Shown: positions 168-61,683 of the stretch, in pieces
Position numbering within the stretch: the first letter of the stretch is position 1
Layout: each line of letters opens with the position of its first letter
Assembly: GCA_038874135.1 (NCBI GenBank)
Contig: JAVZCZ010000001.1
Location: 160,001-224,000, forward strand
Source of the DNA: Candidatus Woesearchaeota archaeon
Lineage (GTDB): Archaea; Nanobdellota; Nanobdellia; Woesearchaeales; 0-14-0-80-44-23
Reading direction: 5' to 3'
Length of the DNA: 64,000 nucleotides
Position numbers and translations under genes: made by a program
The notes under the pieces: generated by a model
What the model was told of the DNA's origin: nothing
The model's input: only the letters and a program-made list of their open reading frames with translations
The model's database searches: none

Positions 168-728
168 TCAGATTGCCCTCCCAAGAAAGAGAATTACGAA
201 TATTCCTGAAGTGTTCAGAACATAAGAGATTGCTGAGAATGTCCTTCCTGAAACCTCGCTGGCTGAAGCCAGAAGTGCCACGCCAATCTCGTCAGGAAGT
301 GGAGAAGCTATTATTATTCCCGCAAGGATGGGCACTAAGAACTTTCTCGCCCAGGTCGGAACCCTGCTGATTATGTACTTTATTATCGCTTCATCCTTAA
401 ACTTTTTAATCTCATCATCCAAAGTGTCTCTAACCAGGTAGAATATCAATAGGTCTCCTATTAGAGAACCCGCCCCTGCTATCAGCCCGGCAATTATGAT
501 GTTCTGGCTCTTTGAGAGCAGCAGCAAGATTGCGGTAGCAGGAGCTGCTGTAAACCCATATGTGAATCCCATGCCAGCAATAAAAGTTCCGAGATAGCCT
601 ACGCTCACAATTAAATTATGCACTTGAGGATTCATCCCACCTTTGAAGATTACATAAGCAAGGACGAATGTTAAGAGTAGAAGTGTTAGCTTAGGATATT
701 TTATCCTAAACCTTATGAATTCGCTCAT
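168..728 (-). CDS. multi-pass membrane protein (DedA/VTT-like)
   Basis: 186 aa, several hydrophobic helices, 'GSLIGDLLIFYLVR' and 'SPLPDE' resemble DedA-type motifs. Confidence 0.55.
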   Translation of the reverse strand: MSEFIRFRIKYPKLTLLLLTFVLAYVIFKGGMNPQVHNLIVSVGYLGTFIAGMGFTYGFTAAPATAILLLLSKSQNIIIAGLIAGAGSLIGDLLIFYLVRDTLDDEIKKFKDEAIIKYIISRVPTWARKFLVPILAGIIIASPLPDEIGVALLASASEVSGRTFSAISYVLNTSGIFVILFLGRAI

Positions 729-807
729 GAAATTTTAAGTTTATAGTGTTCTTTAAAAATTTTTTTGATTGAAAAGCTTATAAACTTGTGCGGTACACCT
801 TCAAAGG

Positions 808-2115
808 ATGGAACAACCAACATTTTACCTGGAAAGCTACGGGTGTTCTGCCAATACGGCAAATGCAGAGATGATCTCAGGAATTCTGGAAAGTGCTGGA
901 ATGCTCAGAGTGAGCAGTCCTGAGCACGCCTCTGTTATAATAATAAACACCTGCATAGTTAAGGCTCCAACAGAGCACAAGATGCAGAGGAGAATAAGTG
1001 AGATTTTAGCTCAGTTTCCTGAAAAAAAGCTAATAATTTCCGGCTGCATGCCCGATGCTGAAGGCAAAACTTTGAAGAAGATTGCTCCAAAAGCAATCCT
1101 GCTCGGAAGCCATCATGTGAAAAAGGTTTTAGAAGCTTTAACCAGAGGAAGAAGCTTCACAGGATACTCAGAAGAGGTAAAGCTGGGCCTTCCCAGGCAT
1201 CTTAGCAATCCTGCAATCTGCATAGTGCCGATTTCAGAAGGCTGTCTTGGAAACTGCTCGTACTGCATAGTTAAGCTTGCAAAGGGAAAGCTGCACTCCT
1301 ACCCGGTTAATGAGATTGTTAAAGAGGTAAAAAGTGGCCTCAGGGCTGGAGCGAGGGAGATCTGGATAACCTCGCAGGACAACCCAGCATACGGCAGAGA
1401 TCTAGCTGAGAAGAGTCAGCTTCCAATGCTCTTAGAAGAGGTTACATCAATTAGGGGAAAGTTCTGGGTGAGGGTTGGGATGATGAATCCTGACGGGATA
1501 CTTCCAGTGCTGGACAGCCTGATTTTAAGGTTTAGGTCTGAGAAGGTTTTCAAGTTCATACACATACCAGTCCAGTCGGGGAATGACGAAATTCTTAGAA
1601 GGATGAGACGCCGCTACTCTGTTGAGGACTTTAAGCACATAATTACAGAATTCAGAAGAAAGATTCCCAGGATAACAATATCAACAGACATAATCTGCGG
1701 CTTTCCCGGAGAGACAGAAGAGCAGTTTGAGGATTCCATAAACCTCATCAAGTGGCTTAGACCAGATGTCCTGAACATTTCAAGATTCTGGCCCATGCCG
1801 GGAACTGAAGCTGCTTCAATGAAAAACATTTTGAACGGCAACATCACTAAGCACAGGTCCCAAAAGCTTTCACGCATATTTGAAGGCATAGCCCTGGAAA
1901 AGAACAAGGCAGAGATTGGTTCTGAGTGCCCGGTCCTTGTGGATGAGCACATAAAAGAGAACCTCTATGTTGCGAGAACAGAATTTTACAAGCCAGTGTC
2001 TCTAAGGATTGACCGCAGAATGTTGGGACAGAAGAAAGTGTTGGGCAGCTTTGCAAGGGCCAGGATTACTGGAGCAACTTCTAACTCCCTGATTGGGGAG
2101 CTTGTTGAATATTAA
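808..2115 (+). CDS. t6A37 tRNA methylthiotransferase (archaeal MtaB/CDKAL1-like, radical SAM)
   Basis: UPF0004 N-terminus (YGCSAN, NTC, GC), CxxxCxxC 'CLGNCSYC', 'GFPGET', C-terminal TRAM-like region. Confidence 0.9.
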   Translation: MEQPTFYLESYGCSANTANAEMISGILESAGMLRVSSPEHASVIIINTCIVKAPTEHKMQRRISEILAQFPEKKLIISGCMPDAEGKTLKKIAPKAILLGSHHVKKVLEALTRGRSFTGYSEEVKLGLPRHLSNPAICIVPISEGCLGNCSYCIVKLAKGKLHSYPVNEIVKEVKSGLRAGAREIWITSQDNPAYGRDLAEKSQLPMLLEEVTSIRGKFWVRVGMMNPDGILPVLDSLILRFRSEKVFKFIHIPVQSGNDEILRRMRRRYSVEDFKHIITEFRRKIPRITISTDIICGFPGETEEQFEDSINLIKWLRPDVLNISRFWPMPGTEAASMKNILNGNITKHRSQKLSRIFEGIALEKNKAEIGSECPVLVDEHIKENLYVARTEFYKPVSLRIDRRMLGQKKVLGSFARARITGATSNSLIGELVEY

Positions 2116-2150
2116 GGATGGAAAGAGAATAGTAAATAAGAATAAGTAAC

Positions 2151-2480
2151 TCAGCTGAAAAGTTCAGCTATCATCTCATCCAGCTGTTTCTCCTCATCGC
2201 TCAGCGTTTTCATGTAGGGGAACAGTGCAACTATCAGGATTAACAGTCCCAACAAGACCATAAGGTTTAGGAAGGACTGGTTTATGTACCTATTCACAAA
2301 CCCTATGACTCCAGCCATTATGAATACGAAGTACATCATTATCCCCATGGCTAGCACCAGGGTTGCCCTGTTCCTTCTAAGCTTTGAAAGTTCAAGCTCA
2401 ATCATTATGGCTTCCTTCTCTGCATCAGAAATCTTACGCATGGCCAATGTTTTTATGCTCCGCCTAATCATTTTCCTCAC
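2151..2480 (-). CDS. small two-TM membrane protein, co-oriented with KaiC-like ATPase
   Basis: 109 aa, two hydrophobic segments; 4-nt overlap with upstream gene. Confidence 0.6.
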   Translation of the reverse strand: MRKMIRRSIKTLAMRKISDAEKEAIMIELELSKLRRNRATLVLAMGIMMYFVFIMAGVIGFVNRYINQSFLNLMVLLGLLILIVALFPYMKTLSDEEKQLDEMIAELFS

Positions 2481-3220
2481 CTGTACCTCTGCTCCTTTGA
2501 GAGCACAACTATCCCGGTATTTGTTATCTTAAAGGGTATCACGCCCTTCTCGTGATCCGTCCTACGCATCTTTATTATCCTGAGAGCCCTGTCGTTAGCT
2601 CCTCCAAGCCCAGCATAGTAGAGCGAAATCACACTGTCTGAGACGAACTCTTCAACTCCGAATCTTGAAAACGCGCTTCCTGAGTTTAGAGACGGCTCGC
2701 CCACTATCTCAGAAGTCAGCACTGAAGTGCACCTTAGCCTTTTAAGCTGCGCTGCGAATGAGTAGAGCTGCTTTCTCACCTCATACTCGTCCTCAAGTGC
2801 CATCCCGAAAACGCTTGTAGAATCAATCACTACCCTCTGAGCCCTGGTCTTTGTTATCTCCGAGATGAGCTGAGTTTGAAAGTCAGAAAGATCGTAAGGG
2901 TAGAAATAAACAAACTTGACCTTGCCTTCCGATTCATACTTCTCAAAATCCCAGCCGAAAGCCTTGGCATCTTCCTTAAGATCGGTCAAGTCCTCCTCCA
3001 TAGAGATGAAGAGTCCTATCTCGCCGCGCTTGATACCCTCATACAAGAACTGCATTGCAAATATTGTCTTACCAGTGCCTGCTCCTCCAGAAATGAGATT
3101 TACAGAGCCTCTGATGAAGCCGCCGCCCGTAATGGCATCCAGCCCCGGAATTCCCGTGCTCACCCTGGAAGAGTCCTTAGCCATCTTAGAACTAGTTGAA
3201 ACTGCCCTTTGCATTTCCAC
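2477..3220 (-). CDS. KaiC-like / RAD55 RecA-superfamily ATPase (single domain)
   Basis: 'STGIPGLD', Walker A GGAGTGKT, 'EE', Walker B 'RVVIDS', 'IIKMRRT'. Confidence 0.9.
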   Translation of the reverse strand: MEMQRAVSTSSKMAKDSSRVSTGIPGLDAITGGGFIRGSVNLISGGAGTGKTIFAMQFLYEGIKRGEIGLFISMEEDLTDLKEDAKAFGWDFEKYESEGKVKFVYFYPYDLSDFQTQLISEITKTRAQRVVIDSTSVFGMALEDEYEVRKQLYSFAAQLKRLRCTSVLTSEIVGEPSLNSGSAFSRFGVEEFVSDSVISLYYAGLGGANDRALRIIKMRRTDHEKGVIPFKITNTGIVVLSKEQRYR

Positions 3221-3270
3221 ACCTCTTTTTTGAATGGCTTGCGCCTCTTACAATTTAATAAAGGCAGTAT

Positions 3271-3702
3271 TTAAATTTTTGCATCTGAGAACAAATCCTT
3301 AATGTGCCTGAGAAGAAAAGCCCTGTCCTGAGGCCAGTTCAGCTTCTCAATAGCTTCAGAAGCCGTTGCCCAGTGCGGGTCCGAATTTTCAGGATCCTTA
3401 GACTTTAAATCTTCCTTCTCACACCTGAAGGCAAACATGTGAATTCTCTTTCTCCTCCCTGAAAAACCGTCAGGCCTAACATATGAGCCGAGCTCTTTAA
3501 CCAGCTTGAGGTCCTTCCTCTCAATGCCTGTTTCCTCCTCAATCTCACGATAGGCCGCTTCCAGAGGGCTTTCACCACTTCTAATATGACCCTTGGGCAG
3601 GGAGAACCTTCCTGAGAGGTTTCTAACCAGGGCTATTCTACCCCTATTTATTATTACTCCACCAGCACTCTCCTCTTCAAACACTTCGCTTGCCATCTTC
3701 AA
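3271..3702 (-). CDS. NUDIX hydrolase (Ap4A hydrolase-like)
   Basis: Nudix box 'PKGHIRSGESPLEAAYREIEEETG'. Confidence 0.9.
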   Translation of the reverse strand: MKMASEVFEEESAGGVIINRGRIALVRNLSGRFSLPKGHIRSGESPLEAAYREIEEETGIERKDLKLVKELGSYVRPDGFSGRRKRIHMFAFRCEKEDLKSKDPENSDPHWATASEAIEKLNWPQDRAFLLRHIKDLFSDAKI

Positions 3703-4545: not shown

Positions 4546-5756
4546 AATTCCTCCACACTCACATTTCTCCTAACCAGGTGAGCCCTCGTAAACCCTTCCA
4601 GATAATGCTCAGCCAGCTTTGCCGAGATTATGCTCAGAATCACAACTATGAGGAAAACTGAAAGCATCTCGCGCATTCCGGGCATGGGATAAAATGAGAG
4701 CGCCAGCACAAGAGCCGCAGTAGCAGCCCCCTTCCTAAGCGAGAGCGCCACAAAAAGCTTCTCCCAGAAGTTCAAACCCTTAAGAGTAAGCTCAGCAGAG
4801 AGCAGCCTGACAGCAGCAACTATCAGAAATATTAAGAGAGACCTTAAAAGCAGGGAAATTGAGAATGAAACACTCCAAACTGAAAGCCCTGCAAGCAGAA
4901 AAACAACAAGCCTAATCGGAGTCTCCAGCTGGCTCATAAACTCAACAATGTGACCCTTACCCTTAACATAAACTAAAGAGAATATCAGAGCATAAACCAC
5001 CACGGCAACAATCCCGCTGCTGTTAATCCCCTGAGCAACAAAGTATGAAAGCAAAAGCCCAAGCAGGAGAACAGCAGGCGACAACAGTGGAGAGTACCGC
5101 TTCTTAAGAGCCTTAACAAAGATTATGCCGAAGAGTATAGCGCAGGAAGCCCCAATAGCCAGCTGCTGAAACACAAAAAAGAGATAAGCAGCCAGCCTTC
5201 CAGAATTAACAACACTTCCCAAAATGCTCCTCATCTCCAAAACTAGAAGGGGAAGCAGCATGAGAAATGGAGTGACAAGCACAGACTCACAAGAGAGAAC
5301 AGCAGAAGACAAGCTCCGCTCACGCCTAAAAAGCCTAGTAGCAAACTCCGAAGCGGTCTGAACAGAAAGCACAGAAAAAATCAGAGCAGCAAAAAAGTCA
5401 AAACCGAAAAGCAACACTGAAAAAGAAGAAACCACAAGTAGGCTCAAAACCAGAAAGAGAATGGAAAACCTCAAAACGCCACCCGAAAGGGAATCTCCCT
5501 CGCGAAGCTTAACAAGAAAAGCCGACTGAAAAAGAACCACAATAAAAGAGAGAGTGGCCACCGCCTCAGCAGCCGCCCTAGGAAAACTAACAACGCGAAC
5601 CCCCCCGTAAGAAAGCATAGAAAGAAATATTCCGAAAAGTATGAGAACAACCGCCCTTGGAAACCCCAAACGCCTACCAAGAGAGGCCCCTGCAGCAGCA
5701 GCCAAGCCGACAAGCAGAACACTCAAAACGTAGTAATACTCAATCAGCCAAACCAC
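4542..5756 (-). CDS. cation:proton antiporter-like membrane protein (CPA1/NhaP-like, divergent)
   Basis: 404 aa, ~12 TM; 'ESVL..P', 'SGIVAVV', 'KGAATAAL' resemble NhaP motifs. Confidence 0.65.
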   Translation of the reverse strand: MVWLIEYYYVLSVLLVGLAAAAGASLGRRLGFPRAVVLILFGIFLSMLSYGGVRVVSFPRAAAEAVATLSFIVVLFQSAFLVKLREGDSLSGGVLRFSILFLVLSLLVVSSFSVLLFGFDFFAALIFSVLSVQTASEFATRLFRRERSLSSAVLSCESVLVTPFLMLLPLLVLEMRSILGSVVNSGRLAAYLFFVFQQLAIGASCAILFGIIFVKALKKRYSPLLSPAVLLLGLLLSYFVAQGINSSGIVAVVVYALIFSLVYVKGKGHIVEFMSQLETPIRLVVFLLAGLSVWSVSFSISLLLRSLLIFLIVAAVRLLSAELTLKGLNFWEKLFVALSLRKGAATAALVLALSFYPMPGMREMLSVFLIVVILSIISAKLAEHYLEGFTRAHLVRRNVSVEEL

Positions 5757-5865
5757 CCCTCTAACTGAAAGTTTCCAAAATCAAAATAAAACTTCAAGTA
5801 TTTAAAAGTATTGCGAAAATAAGAAAAACTTAAAAGCTAACCAAAAAATACTACAACCGGCAAAA

Positions 5866-7488
5866 ATGAGAGCGAAAGACTACTCAACCTGGACAAAAGA
5901 AGAGTTAATAAAAGAATTAGAGAAGTTCAAGAAGCAAAAGAAATACGGCATTGTTTGGGAAGACAAACCTGAACAAGTAGCATTAATGTGCAAGGAAAAG
6001 CTTCCCGTTCTCACAGAAGTCAAGGACAAAGAGATAATCACAGACCCTAACAAGCCAACAAACATACTAATTGAAGGAGACAACTACCACGCTCTTTCCG
6101 TATTGAATTACACCCACAAAGGAAAAATAGATGTCATCTACATTGACCCGCCGTACAATACAGGAAATGAAGGATTTATGTATAATGACAAGATAGTTGA
6201 TAAAGAAGACGCTTATAGACACTCAAAATGGCTCTCATTTATGGAAAAAAGACTTCGCCTGGCCAGAAACCTCTTGAGCGATAAAGGAGTTATCTTTATT
6301 TCTATTGATGATAATGAGGTAGCACAATTAAAGCTTTTATGTGATGAGATTTTTGGAGAGGAGAATTGCATAGGGATATTTGTTTGGAGAAAAAAAGCAG
6401 GAGCAGGAGCAGATTCAAAATTATTGTTTACTCAACACGAATATATCTTATTTTATTCGAAAAATATTAAGAATTTAGATAGATTTTTTGAACCTCTTAC
6501 AGAAAAACAAAAATCCGAATATAAAAATCCAGACAATGACCCACGGGGATTATGGGCTCCTACTGATTTGACTGCTCCTTCTTCGGATACAGATAATTCA
6601 AGATTATATGAGGTTGTGAGTCCAACAGGTAAAAAATGGTTAAGAAGATGGTCCTATACAAAAGAAAATATGAGAAAATTAATAGAACAAAATTTAGTTT
6701 GGTTTGGGAAAGATGGAAATGCGATGCCAAAAAGAAAGAGGTTTCTTTCTGAAAAACAAGGACTGGTTCCAAGGTCGTGGATTGATTTTGTTTTAACATC
6801 TGATGGTAAAAAGGATTTCGAGGATATTTTTGGAAAAGATAATCGATTATTTGAGTATCCCAAACCAACTTTATTAATTAAACATTTAATAAGAATCCCA
6901 AGCAAAAAGAATTCTATTATCCTTGACTTCTTTGCTGGCTCTGGTACCACAGGCCACGCTGTTTTAGAATTAAATAAAGAAGATGGCGGAAATAGGAAGT
7001 TTATTTTATGCACTAACAACGAAAACAACATATGCACAGATGTATGTTATCCGAGAATTGAGAAAGTAATTAAAGGATATAAGAATCTTAAAGGCGAAAA
7101 GGTTGAAGGTTTAGGCGGTAATTTAAAATATTTCAAAACTGACTTTGTAGATGCTAAACCAACAGATAAAAACAAGAAAAAATTAGTTGATGAATCTACA
7201 GAAATGCTTTGCTTGAAGGAAGATTGCTTTGATTTTGTTTTAGAAGGCCGTAACTTTAAGATTTTCAAGAACAACGAAGACAAGTACTTAGGCATAATTT
7301 ACGATGATGACGGAATTGAGCCGTTCAAGAAAGAAGCCAAAAAATTAAATAAGAAGTTTATTGTTTATGTTTTCTCTCTTGATGACAGCGCGCGAGAAGA
7401 AGAATTTGAAGATTTAGAAAATGTTGAGTTAAAGCCAATTCCAGCAGTTATACTTAATGTTTATAAAAGAATTTTTAGAGGGCTTTAA
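5866..7488 (+). CDS. mod: type III restriction-modification Mod subunit (N6-adenine DNA methyltransferase)
   Basis: 'IEGDN', 'IYIDPPYNTG', 'FISIDDNE', 'LDFFAGSGTT'. Confidence 0.92.
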   Translation: MRAKDYSTWTKEELIKELEKFKKQKKYGIVWEDKPEQVALMCKEKLPVLTEVKDKEIITDPNKPTNILIEGDNYHALSVLNYTHKGKIDVIYIDPPYNTGNEGFMYNDKIVDKEDAYRHSKWLSFMEKRLRLARNLLSDKGVIFISIDDNEVAQLKLLCDEIFGEENCIGIFVWRKKAGAGADSKLLFTQHEYILFYSKNIKNLDRFFEPLTEKQKSEYKNPDNDPRGLWAPTDLTAPSSDTDNSRLYEVVSPTGKKWLRRWSYTKENMRKLIEQNLVWFGKDGNAMPKRKRFLSEKQGLVPRSWIDFVLTSDGKKDFEDIFGKDNRLFEYPKPTLLIKHLIRIPSKKNSIILDFFAGSGTTGHAVLELNKEDGGNRKFILCTNNENNICTDVCYPRIEKVIKGYKNLKGEKVEGLGGNLKYFKTDFVDAKPTDKNKKKLVDESTEMLCLKEDCFDFVLEGRNFKIFKNNEDKYLGIIYDDDGIEPFKKEAKKLNKKFIVYVFSLDDSAREEEFEDLENVELKPIPAVILNVYKRIFRGL

Positions 7489-22153: not shown

Positions 22154-22181
22154 AGTGCGTATAAGGTATATTATACGAATA
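22154..22181 (+). other. dif-like Xer recombination site
   Basis: AGTGCGTATAA-GGTATA-TTATACGAATA: 11-6-11 layout, inverted arms, 24 bp upstream of xerA. Confidence 0.8.
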
Positions 22182-22205: not shown

Positions 22206-23045
22206 ATGAATGAGCAACTAATAAAGGACCTGGGACTTACCAAATTAGCAGCTGAATTAAAGCTGAGAGGCTTCAGCCCTCAGACAGTTAAAACATACCT
22301 ATTCCAGAATGCCAAGTTTCTGCTCTCAGCCAAGAAGAAAGTTGAAGAAGTAGACGAAGACGATATAAAAGGATATCTCGCAATGCTTATGGAACAAGGT
22401 GCATCTCCTAGGACAATAGGGCTCACAAAAGCAGCATTAAAGTTCTTTTATGACAACATACTGCAGAGAGGCATAGTAGAGTTTCCCACGCCCAAAATAA
22501 GAAGGACACTACCAGTTGTTTTATCACGGGAAGAAATAAAGCGCATGATTGAAAACGCACCTACTGAAAAGAGCAGAGTCATAATTGAGCTGCTTTATTC
22601 CTCAGGACTCCGCGTCTCGGAGTGTTCTGCATTAAAGCTTGCTGATTTAGAGATTCCCGAAAAAATTGGCTGGGTAAGAGGTGGCAAGGGCGGCAAAGAC
22701 AGGATGTTCATACTCTCAGAAAGACTCATAAAGGACTTAAAACACTACATTTACAAGGAAAAAATTAGAGATTGGCTCTTTCCAGGAAAGAACAATGAAC
22801 ACATAAGTGCCAGGGACATACAGCAAATTGTAAAGAGGTGCGCCATCAGGGCAGGAATCAAGAAAAAGGTCTCACCGCACACCTTAAGGCATAGTTTTGC
22901 CACACACCTACTTGAAAGTGGCACGGACATCAGAAAGATTCAGGAGCTCTTAGGCCACTCCAACTTGCAGACCACTCAGATATATACCAGTGTTAGCAAT
23001 GCTGAACTGATAAAAGTAAAGAGCCCTTTAGACATTCTTAAGTAA
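22206..23045 (+). CDS. xerA: tyrosine recombinase XerA
   Basis: SAM-like N-domain, 'SGLRVSE', 'GKGGKDR', 'HTLRHSFATH', 'LGH', 'TTQIY' - intact catalytic set. Confidence 0.9.
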   Translation: MNEQLIKDLGLTKLAAELKLRGFSPQTVKTYLFQNAKFLLSAKKKVEEVDEDDIKGYLAMLMEQGASPRTIGLTKAALKFFYDNILQRGIVEFPTPKIRRTLPVVLSREEIKRMIENAPTEKSRVIIELLYSSGLRVSECSALKLADLEIPEKIGWVRGGKGGKDRMFILSERLIKDLKHYIYKEKIRDWLFPGKNNEHISARDIQQIVKRCAIRAGIKKKVSPHTLRHSFATHLLESGTDIRKIQELLGHSNLQTTQIYTSVSNAELIKVKSPLDILK

Positions 23046-55452: not shown

Positions 55453-57081
55453 TTAGTACTCAGGCATATCAGAAGGCATCTTAGACGGGCCGCTCCTGTC
55501 TGACTTGCTGGCTGCGATAACATCATCTATCCTCAATATCATCACTGCAACCTCAGATGCTGACTTTATCGCCTGGGTTTTTATCCTGAGCGGCTCTATA
55601 ACGCCTTGCTTCATAGCATCTATAATCTTGCCTGAGAACACATCAATACCCGCCCACTTCTGGCCCTTGTCGTGACTAGCTTTCAGGTCTGTAAGCACAT
55701 CTATGGGATCTAATCCCGCGTTTTCAGCCAGTGTTCTAGGTATGACTTCTATTGAGTCGGCAAATGCCTGCACTGCGAGCTGCTCCCTGCCGCTTAGTGA
55801 TTCTGAGAACTTTCTAAGCTGCCTTGCAAGCTCTGTCTCTACTGAGCCTGCTCCTCCAACTACTTTTCCGTCGCTGAGTGCTGCTGCAAGGTCTCCTATA
55901 GCGTCCTCCATTGCCCTCTTTATTTCCGAGATGACATGGTCGCTTCCGCCCCTAATAAGTATTGTTACTGCCTTTGGATTCTTGCATCCTGTTACGAAGG
56001 TCATGGATTCGTCTCCTGTCTTTCTCTCTTCAACGAGTCCTGCAAAGCCCAAGTCATTAGGTGAGAAGTCTTCAAGCGTAGTTAGCACTTTTCCACCTGT
56101 AGCTAGTTCAAGCTTCTCCATATCCGACTGGGATACTCTTCTCACTGCATATATGCCCTTCTTTGCTAATAGGTGCTGCGCTATGTCATCTATACCTTTC
56201 TGGCAGAACACCACATTAGCTCCCGTCTTAGCTACTTTATCCACGAGGTCTCTTATCATCTTCTCTTCCATGTCCAGGAATGCCTGCATCTTCTCAGGAT
56301 CTGTTATCTGAATCTTTGCTTCTGTCTCAGTATTTTTTATTTCCAGGGCTGAGTCAAGAAGGAGTATCTTTGCATTCTTTACAGAGCTTGGCATTCCAGA
56401 GTGTACCTTCTCCTTATCAAGAACAATACCATCTATAAGTTCAGTATCCTCTATTCCGCCGCCCACCTTCTTCTCAATCTTTATGTTGTCCTTTGCAACT
56501 ACAATTTTTCCATTTTTGACTTCAGCAATCTTCTTAACTGCCTCAACTGCTATCTTGCTCAGCTTATCCTTCGCATATTCTGCTCCCTTTCCAGTCATGG
56601 CTGTCATGGCAATCTTCTGAAGTGGAGCGGTATCCTTCTCACTTATCGGCTCAGCTATTTTCTCAAGGATCTCATTCGCCTTGTCAGCTGCAATTATGTA
56701 GCCCTTAGCTATCACGGTTGGATGTATATCCTGGTCCAGGAGCTCTTCTGCCCGCTTGAGAAGCTCCCCTGCAACAACAACTGCTGTTGTCGTTCCATCG
56801 CCAACCTCATCTTCCTGAGTCTTAGCTATTTCCACCATCATCTTAGCTATGGGATGGTCAATCTCAATTTCTTCAAGAATTGTCACCCCATCATTTGTTA
56901 TTGTTACATCTCCCAATGTGTCTACAAGCATCTTATCCATTCCCTTCGGACCTAGCGTGGTCCTCACAGTAGATGCCACCTGTATTGCAGCTGTTATGTT
57001 CATGTGCTGCGCGTTTTTGCCAGTTGTCCTCTGGCTGCCTTCCGGCAGAATGAAGATTGGTTGTATTTGCGGTTGTGCCAT
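55453..57081 (-). CDS. ths: thermosome (group II chaperonin) subunit
   Basis: '[10 protein letters not shown]', 'TNDG', 'GDGTTT', 'RIDD'. Confidence 0.97.
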
Positions 57082-57243
57082 AAATTCTCACCTCATTATT
57101 TTGAGATTTTTGGATTATTCTGCTCCTAAACCCCCTAAAAAATATAAAAATTGTATACAAGCAGGTATATATAAAGGTTTCGGAAATATGTTCTGTTAAA
57201 TTGTTGTAGGTAATTAATCGGCTACTTGAAAGAACTCTAAAGC

Positions 57244-58053
57244 CTAAAGCAGATTAGCAATTTTCTTTATATCCTTATTTGCTATATAAGTGTAAATTTG
57301 CGTTGTTTTCAAATCTTTATGGCCTAATAGCTGTTGAATATATCGAATATCAGCACCAGATTCCAATAAATGAGTGGCAAAATTGTGCCTTAAGGTATGG
57401 GGAGTAACTCTTTTCTTTATGCCTGCTTTCTTTGAAGCAGATTTGACAATCTGTTGGATTGTCCGTTTATTGTATTTTCCTTCTCTTTGGGAAACAAAAA
57501 TTGGACCTTCCTCCTTTATTCCATACATTTACAGCATATCACTCAATTTTTTATGAAGGAATACAACTCTTTCTTTATCTCCTTTAGCAGTTTTTAGGTG
57601 GATAACTTCTCTGTCAAAATCAATATCTTGCCAATTGAGGTTTCCAGCTTCGTCTAGCCAAAGACCAGCGTAATAAAGAAACATGATAACAAGTTTGTGT
57701 TTCAAATTATTTGTCGAATCTATCATTTTGATAACTTCTTCTTTACTTAAAACTAATGGTAATTTCAGAGATTTTCTGGCGAGAGGTAGCTTCTCCTCAA
57801 ATTTAGTGTTCAAAACATTTTCATAAAAAAAATTTTAGGGTAAAGTATGCGGACCTCATTGTCGATTTGCTTTTAGTGATATAAGACAATAAAAACTCCC
57901 TGGGCATTTTACCTGAAGACAGAAAATCTTTCACTATGGAAATATAGCACTTGCCTGTTTGACAGGAATACCTTATGAGCTTTAATTCCTCAATTAACTT
58001 GCCATTAGTTTATATTTTTCTTCTAGAGAGTAGATTTTACCTTCCTCATTCAT
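57244..58053 (-). pseudogene. Xer-type tyrosine recombinase/integrase pseudogene
   Basis: Two frameshifts (~58003 and poly-T ~57830), in-frame TAA at 57529-57531, catalytic Arg replaced ('YAGLWLDE'); C-terminus retains HTLRH, LGH and TTQIY. Confidence 0.88.
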
Positions 58054-58303
58054 AAATTTTATTATGATGACTAACTACATAAAATCTCGCTTTTTATCTA
58101 AATTTTTACAATAAAACGAATATTTATATCGCTTAATAGTTGTTCAACACAATTTGAGAACCTGCTTATTGCCACCCCGCCCAGACGGAAGCGCGCTTGT
58201 CCTTCGGACACATATTGTCTCGCTTTCAGCAGAAAGATTAATAGAAACGATGAGGGTCTTTTTTCGAATACTTTATAAATATGTTAAAGTTATACTTAAT
58301 ATT

Positions 58304-59056
58304 ATGGACGCTAAAGATATTGAAACAGTTGAAAAAAGGTATTTCGATGAGATAGCCTTTTTTATAGACAAAAATATCCAATGGGTTCTTGAAAGATTGA
58401 AGTCAAAAAATGAAATTAAAGAAGATTGGTTACAAACATTTAAAAAAACTTGTAGAGAAGCATACGAGGAATCATCAGAATTAGATGTAGGGGCAGAGAG
58501 AGTAATTCATAATTTATTTGGTCAATATAGACTTTTTGCTGTTAATTCTTCTCCTATCGGTTCAGATTTAATGTTTGAAACTCATGACGCTTTCATTCAT
58601 ATTGAAGTAAAAACTACTACTGATTCAAATCCGGCCGACTTCAAAGGAAAAATACAAATTGCACAAAGCCAAACTACTTACGAGGTTAGTCAAACAAAAA
58701 GAGGAAATCCTTATCCTTTTATTCCAAGTTTGCCAAAAATTTACTCAAATAAAAAAATCTGTCTAACTTATGTAATTCAAATCATACACAAAAATCAAGA
58801 AGATTTACCAAAAATAATAGTATTGTTTTCTATCCCTAATGGGCTATTAAAATCTACTTATGGGAATTGCATTAATTCTGGAAAACACACAAAAGAGTTA
58901 AATCGTTTGGGTTCGAGAGGGGATATAAGATTTTTGTATAAAGATGCAAGTAAATTTGAAAATCTAGAAAATAAACCGAGTAGAATAAAAGTTATCTATC
59001 CTCAAAACCCCTCAAAAGAATTACTTAAGAAGTATTTGGGCTTAGAAGAGTTATAA
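58304..59056 (+). CDS. putative type II restriction endonuclease (PD-(D/E)XK)
   Basis: 'E...SDLMFE...IHIEVKT'; convergent with a methyltransferase gene. Confidence 0.7.
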   Translation: MDAKDIETVEKRYFDEIAFFIDKNIQWVLERLKSKNEIKEDWLQTFKKTCREAYEESSELDVGAERVIHNLFGQYRLFAVNSSPIGSDLMFETHDAFIHIEVKTTTDSNPADFKGKIQIAQSQTTYEVSQTKRGNPYPFIPSLPKIYSNKKICLTYVIQIIHKNQEDLPKIIVLFSIPNGLLKSTYGNCINSGKHTKELNRLGSRGDIRFLYKDASKFENLENKPSRIKVIYPQNPSKELLKKYLGLEEL

Positions 59057-60295
59057 AACTTTAATTATTCCGCATCTTTTTTCAATAATTTTTAGATAAT
59101 CTTTTTGTAACTCTATTCCAATAGATTTTCTATTAAGTTCTTTTGCTACTTTTAAAGTCGTTCCGCTTCCTACAAAAGGGTCTAAAACAACCCCTTCTTT
59201 TGGACAGCAAGCCATTATAGCCCTTCTTGGTAATTCTTCAGGGAATATTGCAAAATGAGAATCCTGCAATTTCCCTGTCGGGAAATCCCAAACATCGCCA
59301 GGGTTTTTTCCTAATTCATGAGGCTTAACAGTTTGTAAAACATAATGTTCTTCCGTCATAATTTTATCATATTTGTCTTCTTTAATACCCAAAATTTCTT
59401 TTAGTTTAAACCAATCTTCTGGTTTAGGCAAACATCTACCCCCCCTATCAATTCTAAACCAGTGTCCAGCAGTATCTTTATAACCAAATATTTTATCGAT
59501 TTCTTTAGTAGAAATTCCTTTTCTCTTTCTGTATTCTCTGATGAATTTTATTATTTCAAGCTCTAAATTACTATCTATTTTATTTTTTCTTTGGCGAGAA
59601 TAAAACTCTCCAAATACAGACAATCTTGCACCAGGAGACGCCCCAAGATTTATTTTATTCGTGTTCTTAAATTTACCATTATAACCCTTGCCATTATTAT
59701 TTTTATTTTTCCATTTCTCATATTCTTCAATAGATAATGTTAATGGCAATTGTGTTGTAGTTACATTAATAGTACCACCATTAGTTTTGTGCGGTATCCT
59801 AACAGAATCTAAATCAAAATAATATTCTGGTGTCAAATAACCATCTGGTTTTTTTACAAATAAAAATATAGGTTCATAAACATTAGAGAATCTATCCTTT
59901 ATTGATGATGGCATAGCGTTTGTTTTGCGCCATATTAAAACATTTCTTATAGCCCACCCTCTTTTTTGCATTTCTATCGCTAATCTAAATGGTATCATTT
60001 GTAAATTTTTTCCAACATATTTATCTCCTATATTCAAAAAATAAGCTCCATCATCAGTTAAAACTCTTTTTAATTCATCAGCAACTTCCAACATTTTATT
60101 GATATATTCTTCTGGTGTTTTTTCATTACCTATTTGTCCATCTATTCCATAATCCCTTTGTCTCCAATATGGCGGTGAAGTTACAATAACATTAACTGAT
60201 TTATCAGGAATATCCTTTAACCTACTTATAACATCACCTACTAAAATAAGTGGTGTAGTATCTTTCGGCAGTGTTATCAAATTACTTTTGTCCAT
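59051..60295 (-). CDS. beta-class N4-cytosine DNA methyltransferase with internal HTH-like insertion
   Basis: 'TSPPYW', 'LNIGD', 'HFAIFP', 'LDPFVGSGTT'. Confidence 0.9.
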   Translation of the reverse strand: MDKSNLITLPKDTTPLILVGDVISRLKDIPDKSVNVIVTSPPYWRQRDYGIDGQIGNEKTPEEYINKMLEVADELKRVLTDDGAYFLNIGDKYVGKNLQMIPFRLAIEMQKRGWAIRNVLIWRKTNAMPSSIKDRFSNVYEPIFLFVKKPDGYLTPEYYFDLDSVRIPHKTNGGTINVTTTQLPLTLSIEEYEKWKNKNNNGKGYNGKFKNTNKINLGASPGARLSVFGEFYSRQRKNKIDSNLELEIIKFIREYRKRKGISTKEIDKIFGYKDTAGHWFRIDRGGRCLPKPEDWFKLKEILGIKEDKYDKIMTEEHYVLQTVKPHELGKNPGDVWDFPTGKLQDSHFAIFPEELPRRAIMACCPKEGVVLDPFVGSGTTLKVAKELNRKSIGIELQKDYLKIIEKRCGIIKVL

Positions 60296-60437
60296 AATTA
60301 ATCCCTTTTTTATTGAACTCTTCTTTAATAAAATTTTCAAATTGTTTAGACACAATAAGCCCCTTTTCTTTACAAAACTTTCTGTATTCTTCATAAACTT
60401 TAGAATCGATCTTTAATGTAACATTCTTACTTGGCAT
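60282..60437 (-). CDS. ribbon-helix-helix small regulator upstream of the methyltransferase
   Basis: MPSKNVTLKIDSKVYEEYRKFCKEKGLIVSKQFENFIKEE (beta strand plus two helices). Confidence 0.7.
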   Translation of the reverse strand: MPSKNVTLKIDSKVYEEYRKFCKEKGLIVSKQFENFIKEEFNKKGINYGQK

Positions 60438-60831
60438 TTTTTCAACTCCTTGTAATAGACATATTTGCACATATTTATAAATGTTTCTTAACTATACAGG
60501 TTTTTAATGAAACGGCGGCACTCCCTAAAGAAAAAACTATGGTGGCAAAAAATTTTCGGCGCCCTCGCGACTTTGAGTTTTTGGACTTTGCCCAACGTTG
60601 CACCAAAACTCAATCTTCATTTCATCCGGAGAAATGAACAGCGATTTAACGGTTCCGCCTTCGCTCTGCCGCTCGGTCCCACCCCAATTTTTCCTTCCGA
60701 AAAACTGCGTATAAGCACACATGTTAAGTCCAATAATTTTTTGAGCTCGGGCAGTGCTTCGCACATATAATCTGCTTCGTAGAAGTTTTATATTTTGGCG
60801 GTGCAAAAAGAAAGCTTAAAAATATCCTTAA

Positions 60832-61206
60832 AAACCAGATAAAATAATGACTGATGGTTTATGGGCTTATGAGAAGGCTTTCAAGAAAGCATTTTACAGC
60901 AGGTACAAAGTTGATAAAGTAGAATTGATAAGATGAGTTGGAATAAGAACAAGAGAAACAAACAATGTTATTGAAAAGACTTCATGGAACCCTTAAGGAC
61001 AGACTAAAACCCATGAGAGGATTAAAAGTGAGGAAACAGCACAAACATTTCTTGATGGTTGGTTTGTCTTCTATCACTTCTTAAGACCACATCAAAGTCT
61101 TAGTGGTAATACTCCCGCTAAAATCTCTGGAGTAAATATTGAAGTTGAAAATTGGAAATTTATGATACAGAAGGCAACTAAATTCCAAACTATTAATTCT
61201 GAATAA
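60832..61206 (+). pseudogene. IS6-like DDE transposase C-terminal remnant
   Basis: KPDKIMTDGLWAYEKAF...*...NNVIE/RLHGTLKDR..PMRGLK/...YHFLRPHQSLSGNTPA, with one stop and two frameshifts. Confidence 0.8.
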
Positions 61207-61305
61207 ATAAAGGTGATAAAAAAATGAAGATCTTAATGTTTAATTCATCAACAATAAGTTAACAGAACTCTGTTATGTGAGAAGAAGAGTAAATAAAGAA
61301 AAAAA

Positions 61306-61683
61306 TTATTTTTCAAACATCCTCTTTCCGAGCCCTTTTAGGTAGCACTTTATGAGTTCGTAGTGCTGTACGAGGTGTACTATGCCTAAGCCTGCTGCGA
61401 TGTAGCTAGAAATTGCGTGCGCGTCTCTTATCCACTGGCTTGCGAAGTATGCTGCGTTTCTTCCCCCCTGGTAACCAACGTGCGGGTAGAATATTCCGGT
61501 GCCGACTGCCACTCCTAAGGAGATGAGTAAGCTGAGGTCTACCAACATTTTTGAGTCCATAGGAGTCCATTTGCTGTGTGTTTCCCTCTCTAGTCTTCCT
61601 TCTAAATCATTTTGCATTGTTTTGCATACTTCTTCGCAGCCATCTTCTCTTACTTCTTTATTCTTCTTTGCCATAATGTTCAC
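61306..61683 (-). CDS. DUF4405-like membrane protein (His-bearing, cytochrome b-like)
   Basis: 'VDL......TGI', 'W...H', 'HLVQH'. Confidence 0.55.
   Translation of the reverse strand: MNIMAKKNKEVREDGCEEVCKTMQNDLEGRLERETHSKWTPMDSKMLVDLSLLISLGVAVGTGIFYPHVGYQGGRNAAYFASQWIRDAHAISSYIAAGLGIVHLVQHYELIKCYLKGLGKRMFEK

Follow-up and report, generated by a model that had tools for sequence, protein, structure and literature searches.

An integron consists of a recombinase gene that lies divergent from an insertion site (attI), beyond which an array of cassettes follows in the same orientation. The end-sites of the cassettes (attC) are imperfect palindromes with the box order R''/L''...L'/R', AAC...GTT ends, and covarying stems; each cassette carries R' at its own 5' end, the footprint of a crossover at GTT, and defense genes are among the cargo. 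Integron function is thought to depend on an additional domain that is specific to the integron integrase, IntI. In mobile integrons (class 1 integrons in Tn402/Tn21, often flanked by IS26) the whole platform lies within transposon ends. Archaeal integrons are reported to be rare: a survey of 6718 genomes recorded them in 75, and its six IntIs carry the additional domain (Ghaly et al. 2022, PMC9668308). Our full-text searching of the literature found no description of a Xer-type cassette system in archaea that lacks the IntI domain. Here we analyze a window of 64,000 nucleotides (nt) from a Candidatus Woesearchaeota archaeon of the order Woesearchaeales, whose genome is a single contig of 909,956 bp (JAVZCZ010000001.1, positions 160,001 to 224,000; G000:C1:160001-224000 in our own numbering of genomes [G], contigs [C], and loci [L]). 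An island in this window belongs to a system that shares the cassette-array architecture of integrons, and comparison with its relatives indicates that it is very probably a dead copy of a mobile, integron-like gene-capture platform that belongs to a different branch of recombinases.

The island (window positions 57190-61268) is a low-GC region of ~4 kb, mostly 24 to 36% GC compared to mostly 41 to 53% in the flanking genes. From left to right it comprises a terminal repeat, an integrase pseudogene, a noncoding segment, an intact type II restriction-modification (R-M) module, ~330 nt of GC-richer noncoding DNA, a transposase remnant, and a second terminal repeat (Table 1). A first-pass annotation made from the letters alone had described an integrase divergent from an R-M module with a GC-richer noncoding segment on either side, and Pfam, PADLOC, and GC content confirm that description; the strings that it quoted at 58142 and 60723, with their TTTGAG, CTTCG hairpin, CATAT, and TATA-like features, are present as described. 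The GTT-N5-CAAT motif that opens both segments occurs at chance frequency when taken alone (11 occurrences in the window against 10.1 expected), but the two sites themselves are real and align with conserved foreign sites. Although related, the segments are of different kinds: the first is an attI-like site with a leader, and the second an end-site with the leader of the next cassette. A third proposed site at 57203 (GTTGTAGGTAAT) is attributable to chance, for its GTT is kept neither in G002 (AATGTAGGTGAA) nor in G322 (ATTGTAGGTAAT), and it adjoins the terminal repeat.

We recognized the insertion site by comparison with other genomes. We built a profile from the DNA that precedes integrase homologues in 17 other genomes, and in the 910-kb genome it matches a single place, 58081-58153 (E=1.4e-8); the 17 sequences include those of G245 and G315, two genomes flagged as unpublished, and no conclusion depends on those two. 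The window site ends 89 to 100 nt 5' of the integrase start and points away from the integrase gene, and close homologues carry a conserved site, ATTAAACGnCAATTAAAACTGCGTTTAATAG(G/T)T followed directly by GTTAnnnn(C/A)AAT, at ~50 to 170 nt from the integrase start codon. A pattern search recovers the site in 17 of 23 order-level loci, and a profile search places it at the same relative position in 35 of 48 public loci; it can also be made out by eye in all five loci with integrases of ~50% identity and enough upstream sequence. In the window it is built from an inverted repeat, a dif-like left arm (ACTGCGTTTAA), a 4-nt spacer, and then GTTCAACACAAT. The left inverted repeat covaries among genomes (AAGCG/CGCTT, AAACG/CGTTT, AACCG/CGGTT), and the right arms differ from dif. 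Past the GTT, sequences from different genomes show no relatedness: the left repeat, the integrase, and the left part of attI in the window can be aligned to G322 and G002 up to 58144/58154, whereupon homology stops at GTT. We place the putative crossover at about 58141/58142. Assemblies tend to break at strain differences or repeated sequence; of 80 public contigs with the integrase, 32 break off no more than 400 nt upstream of its start codon, and the 400 nt downstream of its stop contain no contig end (binomial p=5e-10).

A direct comparison between genomes resolves a single cassette at this junction. G322:C19 shares the transposon repeat, the integrase, and the left half of attI with window 57168-58144 (77% identity), continues after attI with a 0.9-kb cassette that holds an HNH-type gene and a well-formed end-site, and then returns to a 93% match with window 58141-58230. 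One aligned stretch gives way to the other within the four bases TGTT, and G322 has exactly one extra cassette relative to the window, inserted between T and GTT. The extra cassette (L066 2497-3183) encodes a protein of ~228 amino acids (aa) with a C-terminal HNH-like motif recognized by eye, CxxC...HxDH...CxxCN.

The end-sites of the relatives retain a record of how such cassettes were inserted. The R'' 9-mer of an end-site is the reverse complement of the junction that starts its own cassette, 0.5 to 11 kb upstream, and not of the junction that follows it. Over the variable positions of R'' in nine cassettes from seven genomes, 47 of 54 agree with the upstream junction and 19 of 54 with the downstream one; shuffled pairings give 24.0 +/- 4.3, and not one of 100,000 shuffles reaches 47 (p<1e-5). 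Three more cassettes from public metagenome-assembled genomes (MAGs; JAWCKZ010000011, JAWCMS010000003, and WAQT01000039) match their upstream junctions at 8/9, 9/9, and 9/9 positions, and overall the rule holds in 11 of 12 cassettes. Integron logic predicts precisely this complementarity if circular cassettes cross over at the left edge of R'. The pattern in the relatives is that expected of circle insertion with crossover between G and TT, each cassette having its own R' at its 5' end.

These data also bear on whether the GC-rich segments with UUCG hairpins could instead be structured RNA genes, such as regulators of the R-M operon or RNAs of a mobile element, rather than recombination sites. 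GC-rich islands in AT-rich DNA, several TTCG-capped hairpins, a T-run after ...CCAATAATTTTTT, and nearby TATA-like boxes would suit such genes. An RNA fold, however, can account neither for the complementarity of R'' to a box 0.5 to 11 kb upstream nor for a whole cassette that one genome has at GTT and another lacks, and an Rfam scan of 57000-61400 returned no match at the gathering score and none even at E<=10. The R'' rule is explained neither by RNA function nor by chance, and we consider the RNA explanation very unlikely.

A blastn search of the genome with 58100-58300 and 60470-60850 found no close copy, single-sequence nhmmer against the genome found one weak relative only, and a four-way MAFFT alignment of the GC-rich segments was uninformative. 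We scanned the relatives for an 11-nt segment located 3 to 5 nt before a GTT and matched by a perfect reverse complement 25 to 240 nt upstream. Ten sites adjoining integrases share a common build, R''(..AAC)-A-L''-...-L'-3/4 nt-GTTnnnnn(C/A)AAT. Among them are eight distinct L''/L' pairs; each pairs perfectly along its 11 bp, and at 8 of 11 positions a change in one strand is compensated in the other. A perfect 11-bp stem was the criterion by which the rule sites were selected, and the perfection of the stem is itself a product of that selection. RNAalifold on a MAFFT alignment of nine sites recovered the stems in part, because the 3-nt and 4-nt spacers are out of register, and the stems were then counted directly; site membership rests on hidden Markov model profiles. 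Modeled as single-stranded DNA, the site of an intact relative would fold at -17.8 kcal/mol into a closing stem with two inner hairpins, and the element of an intact relative yields DNA-fold z scores of -4.6 and -4.0. A profile of nine end-sites from seven other genomes matches window 60636-60734 (E=7e-7), and its only two other significant matches in the genome, 846944-847108 and 856863-856923, lie in a second island bounded by the same type of transposon repeat. The search for further copies that the first-pass annotation had proposed thus yields attI here, attC here, and these two sites of the second island.

The sites of the relatives have the box order, the AAC/GTT ends, and the covarying stems of attC, but their spacers differ and extrahelical bases are absent. 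Compared to integron sites, they have a perfect 11-bp L stem, a 1-nt spacer on one side against 3 to 4 nt on the other, a three-way fold, a conserved CCCAAAT, and a likewise conserved CAAT after R', while the attI of the system is dif-like with a covarying inverted repeat.

The recombinase likewise departs from IntI. G002:C66 encodes an intact homologue of 272 aa, with 70% aa and 80% nt identity to the pseudogene and a nucleotide match that spans 57239-58154. Its best NCBIfam match is the archaeal family XerA_Arch (NF040815), which at 216.4 bits narrowly misses the cutoff of 220; the integron integrase family TIGR02249 comes second at 196.7 bits, short of its cutoff of 265, and PRK15417 scores 133 against a cutoff of 435. 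An alignment to VchIntIA (2A3V) splits where 17 query residues stand opposite 62 IntI residues, which is the place of the IntI-specific additional domain. That domain is absent from the integrase, as the first-pass annotation had noted. The nearest solved structures are those of XerA (5HXY and 4A8E; E=1e-39 to 3e-40), each aligned in a single stretch.

A canonical integron with IntI, attI, and attC, of the kind already reported in archaea, would share the overall architecture, the second-best match to TIGR02249, an R'' that ends in AAC, and an R' that starts with GTT. The missing domain and the subthreshold TIGR02249 score argue against it, as do L stems that are perfect 11-mers with no extrahelical bases and an asymmetric spacer; the archaeal IntIs of Ghaly et al. 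2022 (PMC9668308), moreover, are stated to carry the additional domain. We find this explanation scarcely credible.

The resemblance to XerA raises the question of which recombinase moves the cassettes. The host has a separate intact XerA (22206-23045), 41% identical to the island enzyme, with a symmetric dif-like site at 22154-22181, AGTGCGTATAA-GGTATA-TTATACGAATA, between the TATA-like box of the host xerA and its start codon. Given this host XerA with its own dif, the island enzyme does not have the profile of a single chromosomal Xer acting at one dif. XerA proteins are the closest solved relatives of the island enzyme and are of similar length, and the attI core is dif-like in having an 11-nt arm, a short spacer, and a second arm; the site of the island enzyme, however, is asymmetric and followed by variable cargo, whereas the host dif is symmetric. 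It could be argued that the host XerA moves the cassettes at sites that mimic dif, as with IMEX elements or the pdif modules of Acinetobacter (10.1101/2024.04.09.588662), with the island integrase incidental or a helper. The arm that precedes the 60723 junction (ACTGCGTATAA) matches the left arm of the host dif (AGTGCGTATAA) at 10 of 11 positions, the left arm of attI is dif-like too, and the second island has two attC-like sites and no integrase. Yet attI accompanies, at a constant distance, a specialized integrase clade only 41% identical to the host XerA in the 35 public loci noted above; the right arms are unlike dif; the sites are folded, covarying structures rather than duplex copies of a 28-bp dif; and the contig breaks follow the upstream side of the integrase. 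The pdif modules also consist of genes between dif-like sites that recombine by a Xer-type reaction, but their recombinase is the host XerC/D and their sites are inverted 28-bp duplexes, whereas the island system has a dedicated recombinase, a fixed site, and direct-oriented folded sites. We judge the host XerA explanation unlikely.

Relatives of the platform are present in many archaeal genomes. Integrase homologues at E<=1e-60 occur in 70 of 401 genomes sampled from the order. Integrases 85 to 93% identical to the G002 protein (loci L073-L152) are found in MAGs labeled Woesearchaeota, Pacearchaeota, Aenigmatarchaeota, Bilamarchaeaceae, Iainarchaeum, and Altiarchaeales, which would fit recent horizontal spread, although these labels are the titles of MAG records and binning errors are possible. 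Less similar copies (66 to 71% identity) come from Thermoplasmata/DHVE2 MAGs and are not accompanied by a match to the attI profile.

In part of this range, the platform is housed in a transposon, whose IS6-type ends around the island the first-pass annotation had passed over. The right end of the island (61170-61268) is 81% identical to genome positions 858077-858171, part of a copy (858047-858171) that resembles a miniature inverted-repeat transposable element (MITE). The transposase remnant retains the C-terminal part only, with Pfam matches to DDE_Tnp_IS240 (E=0.082) and rve_3 (E=3.5e-4), and it aligns to the intact DDE_Tnp_IS240 transposase of L062 (E=2e-9 and 2e-4). The terminal repeats start with GTTCTGTT.., as in IS6 ends of the GGTTCTGTTGCAAA type. 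In G000, G002, and G322, the repeat GTTCTGTTAA.. follows the integrase stop by 40 to 53 nt; it has the same position in public MAGs labeled Bilamarchaeaceae, Pacearchaeota, Iainarchaeum, and Woesearchaeota, and in a MAG labeled Aenigmatarchaeota it stands 120 nt past the stop. Of the 48 public loci examined, 6 have the repeat, the G002 contig among them, and 42 lack it; the platform therefore exists mostly without the transposon, with one subclade borne by it. No 8-bp target-site duplication is found at the island, where the flanking 8-mers GGAAATAT and TCTGTTAT differ, and the same-genus genome G001 offers no exact empty site, synteny being lost right after the thermosome promoter. In four copies (window 57160-57190, L014 ~1440-1460, L066 ~1430-1454, and genome 844800-844836), the left IS6-type repeat lies ~12 to 25 nt beyond a TATAAA-like box of the neighboring host gene, a placement that suggests a preference for insertion next to promoters.

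One might accordingly regard the island as a mere IS6-type cargo transposon in which the integrase, the GTT motifs, and the hairpins are passengers or products of chance. Terminal inverted repeats surround it, it holds a transposase remnant, a related R-M pair adjoins an intact IS6 transposase in L062, and GTT-N5-CAAT alone is no more frequent than expected. The 42 repeat-free integrase loci, however, have the platform without the transposon; the profile matches, the breakpoints, and the R'' rule lie far past chance; and the island lacks a target-site duplication. This explanation, hardly plausible in its full form, fails as a complete account and stands only for the movement of the whole platform. 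The island also differs from IS6/IS26 elements, with which it shares terminal repeats and a probable remnant of a DDE_Tnp_IS240-type transposase, in being a 4.1-kb unit with passenger genes rather than one of ~0.8 kb and in lacking the 8-bp duplication. The integron-like platform is, as in mobile integrons, enclosed by transposon ends and associated with near-identical integrases across phylum labels; compared to those systems, the carrier here is one IS6-type unit whose own inverted repeats enclose the platform, the hosts are archaeal, and this copy has neither the 5' part of the transposase nor a target-site duplication.

In intact relatives, the gene of a ~270-aa XerA-like recombinase without the IntI domain is divergent from a dif-like attI (inverted repeat, left arm, 4-nt spacer, GTTnnnnnCAAT), which is followed by same-orientation cassettes that each close with a 90- to 190-nt element of the order R''(..AAC)-A-L''(11 nt)-hairpins-CCCAAAT-hairpin-AAACTT-L'(11 nt)-3/4 nt-GTT. 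We propose that the site of a circular cassette would fold as a single strand, L'' pairing with L' and R'' with R', so as to imitate the attI core. The recombinase, which we presume to be active in intact copies, would then cross over at or just before GTT; an inserted cassette would have its own R' as its start and its own R''-L''...L' as its end. Cassettes bring their own promoter-like leaders, and in the subclade that includes the window copy the IS6-type transposon ends around the platform would carry it between genomes.

The leaders share a motif (hairpin NCTTCGN, ATAT(A/T)GTC, a second hairpin, and a TATA-like tract) that recurs after junctions in several genomes; the sequence of the second hairpin varies between genomes, and its pairing is kept. 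We infer that the leader is a promoter region borne by the cassette. The leader after attI, module 2, has the hairpin GTCC-TTCG-GGAC, ATATTGTC, and a second hairpin, with a TATA-like tract at 58237-58244. That of the lost following cassette has the hairpin GTGC-TTCG-GCAC, ATATAATC, a second hairpin, and a TATA-like tract; its positions 60754-60788 match G021 at 91%, and further leader matches occur in G029.

The local copy itself is dead: the integrase is a pseudogene and the end-site has decayed. The first-pass annotation had called the local system inactivated, and the eight in-frame stops and the decayed end-site agree with it. Its RYYYAAC assignment was misplaced, in that ATTTAAC at 60644 falls inside the L'' box; by family alignment, the local boxes are R'' GAAATGAAC (60631-60639), A, L'' GCGATTTAACG (60641-60651), CCCCAAT, a hairpin, L' CGTATAAGCAC (60708-60718), a spacer ACAT, and GTTAAGTCCAAT at 60723. 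Deletion has removed the remaining array along with ~510 bp of the transposase gene (its 5' 60%), and with the integrase and the end-site disabled the R-M genes are therefore fixed in place. The single 2.6-kb cassette that remains is most likely a fusion of the start of one cassette, the R-M pair, and the end-site of another, for its leader homology to G322 stops at 58230 and R-M homology to other contigs starts at 58261-58331.

Several observations weigh against reading the island as a cassette-capture platform. The locally folded site that the first-pass annotation had foreseen does not materialize, the DNA fold of the local element being no more stable than those of shuffled sequences (z=+0.9 and +0.8); of the 11 positions in the L''/L' stem, only 7 are paired; and the local R'' is ambiguous at its variable positions, matching the upstream and downstream junctions at 3/6 each, while being the exact complement of GTTCATTTC, a junction found in G322 and JAWCKZ010000011. 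The second cassette of G322 (c2) breaks the R'' rule (2/6). The cassettes of the system, compared to typical integron cassettes, are large, often multigene, and equipped with promoter-like leaders of their own. To these points belong the selection for perfect stems and the provenance of the phylum labels mentioned above. Lastly, restriction endonuclease (REase) homologues of 77 to 84% identity stand beside the same methyltransferase (MTase) in G196 (C127) and in four metagenome contigs, and these share the R-M genes only (58261/58297-60265/60289) and not the flanks out to the sites; two of the R-M homologues adjoin an IS6 transposase or sit downstream of an integrase. The R-M pair may have arrived by another route. 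The capture reading of the first-pass annotation nevertheless finds support in the conserved attI with its variable cargo, the cassette difference in G322, the R'' rule, and the covarying stems.

In none of G196:C127 and the four metagenome contigs did we find a whole R-M cassette with the same bounding sites or a clean boundary. In L062 (Ga0315268_10014414, 182-3301), an R-M homologue of 82% nt identity immediately adjoins an intact IS6-family transposase with a zinc finger (294 aa, DDE_Tnp_IS240), and no attC-like element separates the two; 181 nt before the REase the contig breaks off, in sequence that resembles an attI junction. In L063 (Ga0233425_10005521, 74-984 and 5022-6973), the R-M pair is located 4 kb past the stop of an integrase homologue whose attI faces away, and the pair therefore occurs outside the array side too.

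Table 1. Coordinates of the island features in the 64,000-nt window
Feature	Position	Strand	Basis
IS6-type left terminal inverted repeat, GTTCTGTTAAATTGTTGT	57190..57207	+	16/18 complementary to 61251-61268
Xer-type tyrosine recombinase pseudogene	57244..58053	-	Pfam Phage_integrase match; 8 in-frame stops
attI-like site, GTTCAACACAAT at 58142	58081..58153	+	Profile from 17 other genomes, E=1.4e-8
Cassette leader ("module 2")	58142..58230	+	93% identity to start of G322:C19 cassette 2
Type II restriction endonuclease, 250 aa	58304..59056	+	PADLOC REase_II, E=1.4e-10
N6/N4 DNA methyltransferase, 447 aa	59051..60394	-	Pfam N6_N4_Mtase, E=6e-55; PADLOC MTase_II
Small gene, 62 aa, ribbon-helix-helix-like by eye	60282..60470	-	Weak Pfam match
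"Unit 1," 5' extension of end-site, contains CGTTGCAC	60535..60630	+	nhmmer match to genome 846885-846968, E=5e-4
Decayed attC-like element, ~100 nt, GTTAAGTCCAAT at 60723	60631..60734	+	Profile from 9 foreign sites
Leader of lost following cassette	60735..60800	+	Partial matches in G021 and G029
IS6-family transposase remnant, with stops	60832..61206	+	About residues 175-271 of 294-aa homologue
IS6-type right terminal inverted repeat	61251..61268	-	16/18 against left repeat

The neighbors of the island are a thermosome gene (55453-57081) and a DUF4405 gene (61306-61683), both on the minus strand. The second low-GC island with IS6-type ends, at genome positions 844829-858171 (L001 4829-18171), has no integrase and no attI, and no attI remnant is found at its left end. 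In order, it begins with a type II MTase, followed by a gene of 288 aa, a paralogue of the 62-aa gene, and the attC-like site at 846944-847108; the rest holds type I hsdM/S/R genes with two MNT/HEPN-like pairs, an MTase fragment, the attC-like site at 856863-856923, which is a 3' half, and an IS6 MITE (858047-858171). The 62-aa paralogue, at ~846.7 kb, bears the motif GLIVSKQFENF and precedes the second attC-like element of the genome; a homologue of 72% nt identity precedes an attC in G322.

Two further arrangements recur around the sites of the family. The unit 1 hairpin, TTTGAKTTTTTGG...CCAAAAMTCAA enclosing CGTTGCAC, precedes R'' in some sites, with copies at window 60535-60630, genome 846873-846945, L056 ~4860-4948, and L009 ~1470-1545, and units similar to unit 1 stand before junctions in G191 and G034. 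Some cassettes also start in inverted form, with an L'-like CTTCGTTAAATCG, ~50 nt, and then CTAACA-TTGATTTAACGG, an arrangement that resembles a permuted end-site; such starts are seen right of attI in L031, L032, L036, and L043, and also at L066 3420-3480.

Taken alone, the window copy is of modest interest; as comparative evidence for the mechanism it is clear, adding a clean comparison of cassette presence and absence and, in the complementarity of R'' to the upstream junction, a ready computational test. We lean toward the broader proposal that a XerA-like branch without the domain regarded as defining integron integrases runs a true archaeal form of integron-type capture, with folded attC-like sites and a crossover at GTT, in about one-sixth of the genomes sampled from the order and in MAGs labeled as at least six other archaeal lineages, and that its IS6-borne subclade, a counterpart to mobile integrons, spreads defense genes between phyla. 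If this is true, cassette capture evolved, or persisted, outside IntI, and the system would offer a simple setting in which to study how a tyrosine recombinase reads folded DNA. A common means of gene exchange in DPANN and other archaea would then escape standard integron finders, as would its transposon-borne form with R-M and other defense genes as cargo, and a Xer-type system of this kind may account for the integrase-less attC clusters reported in archaea.

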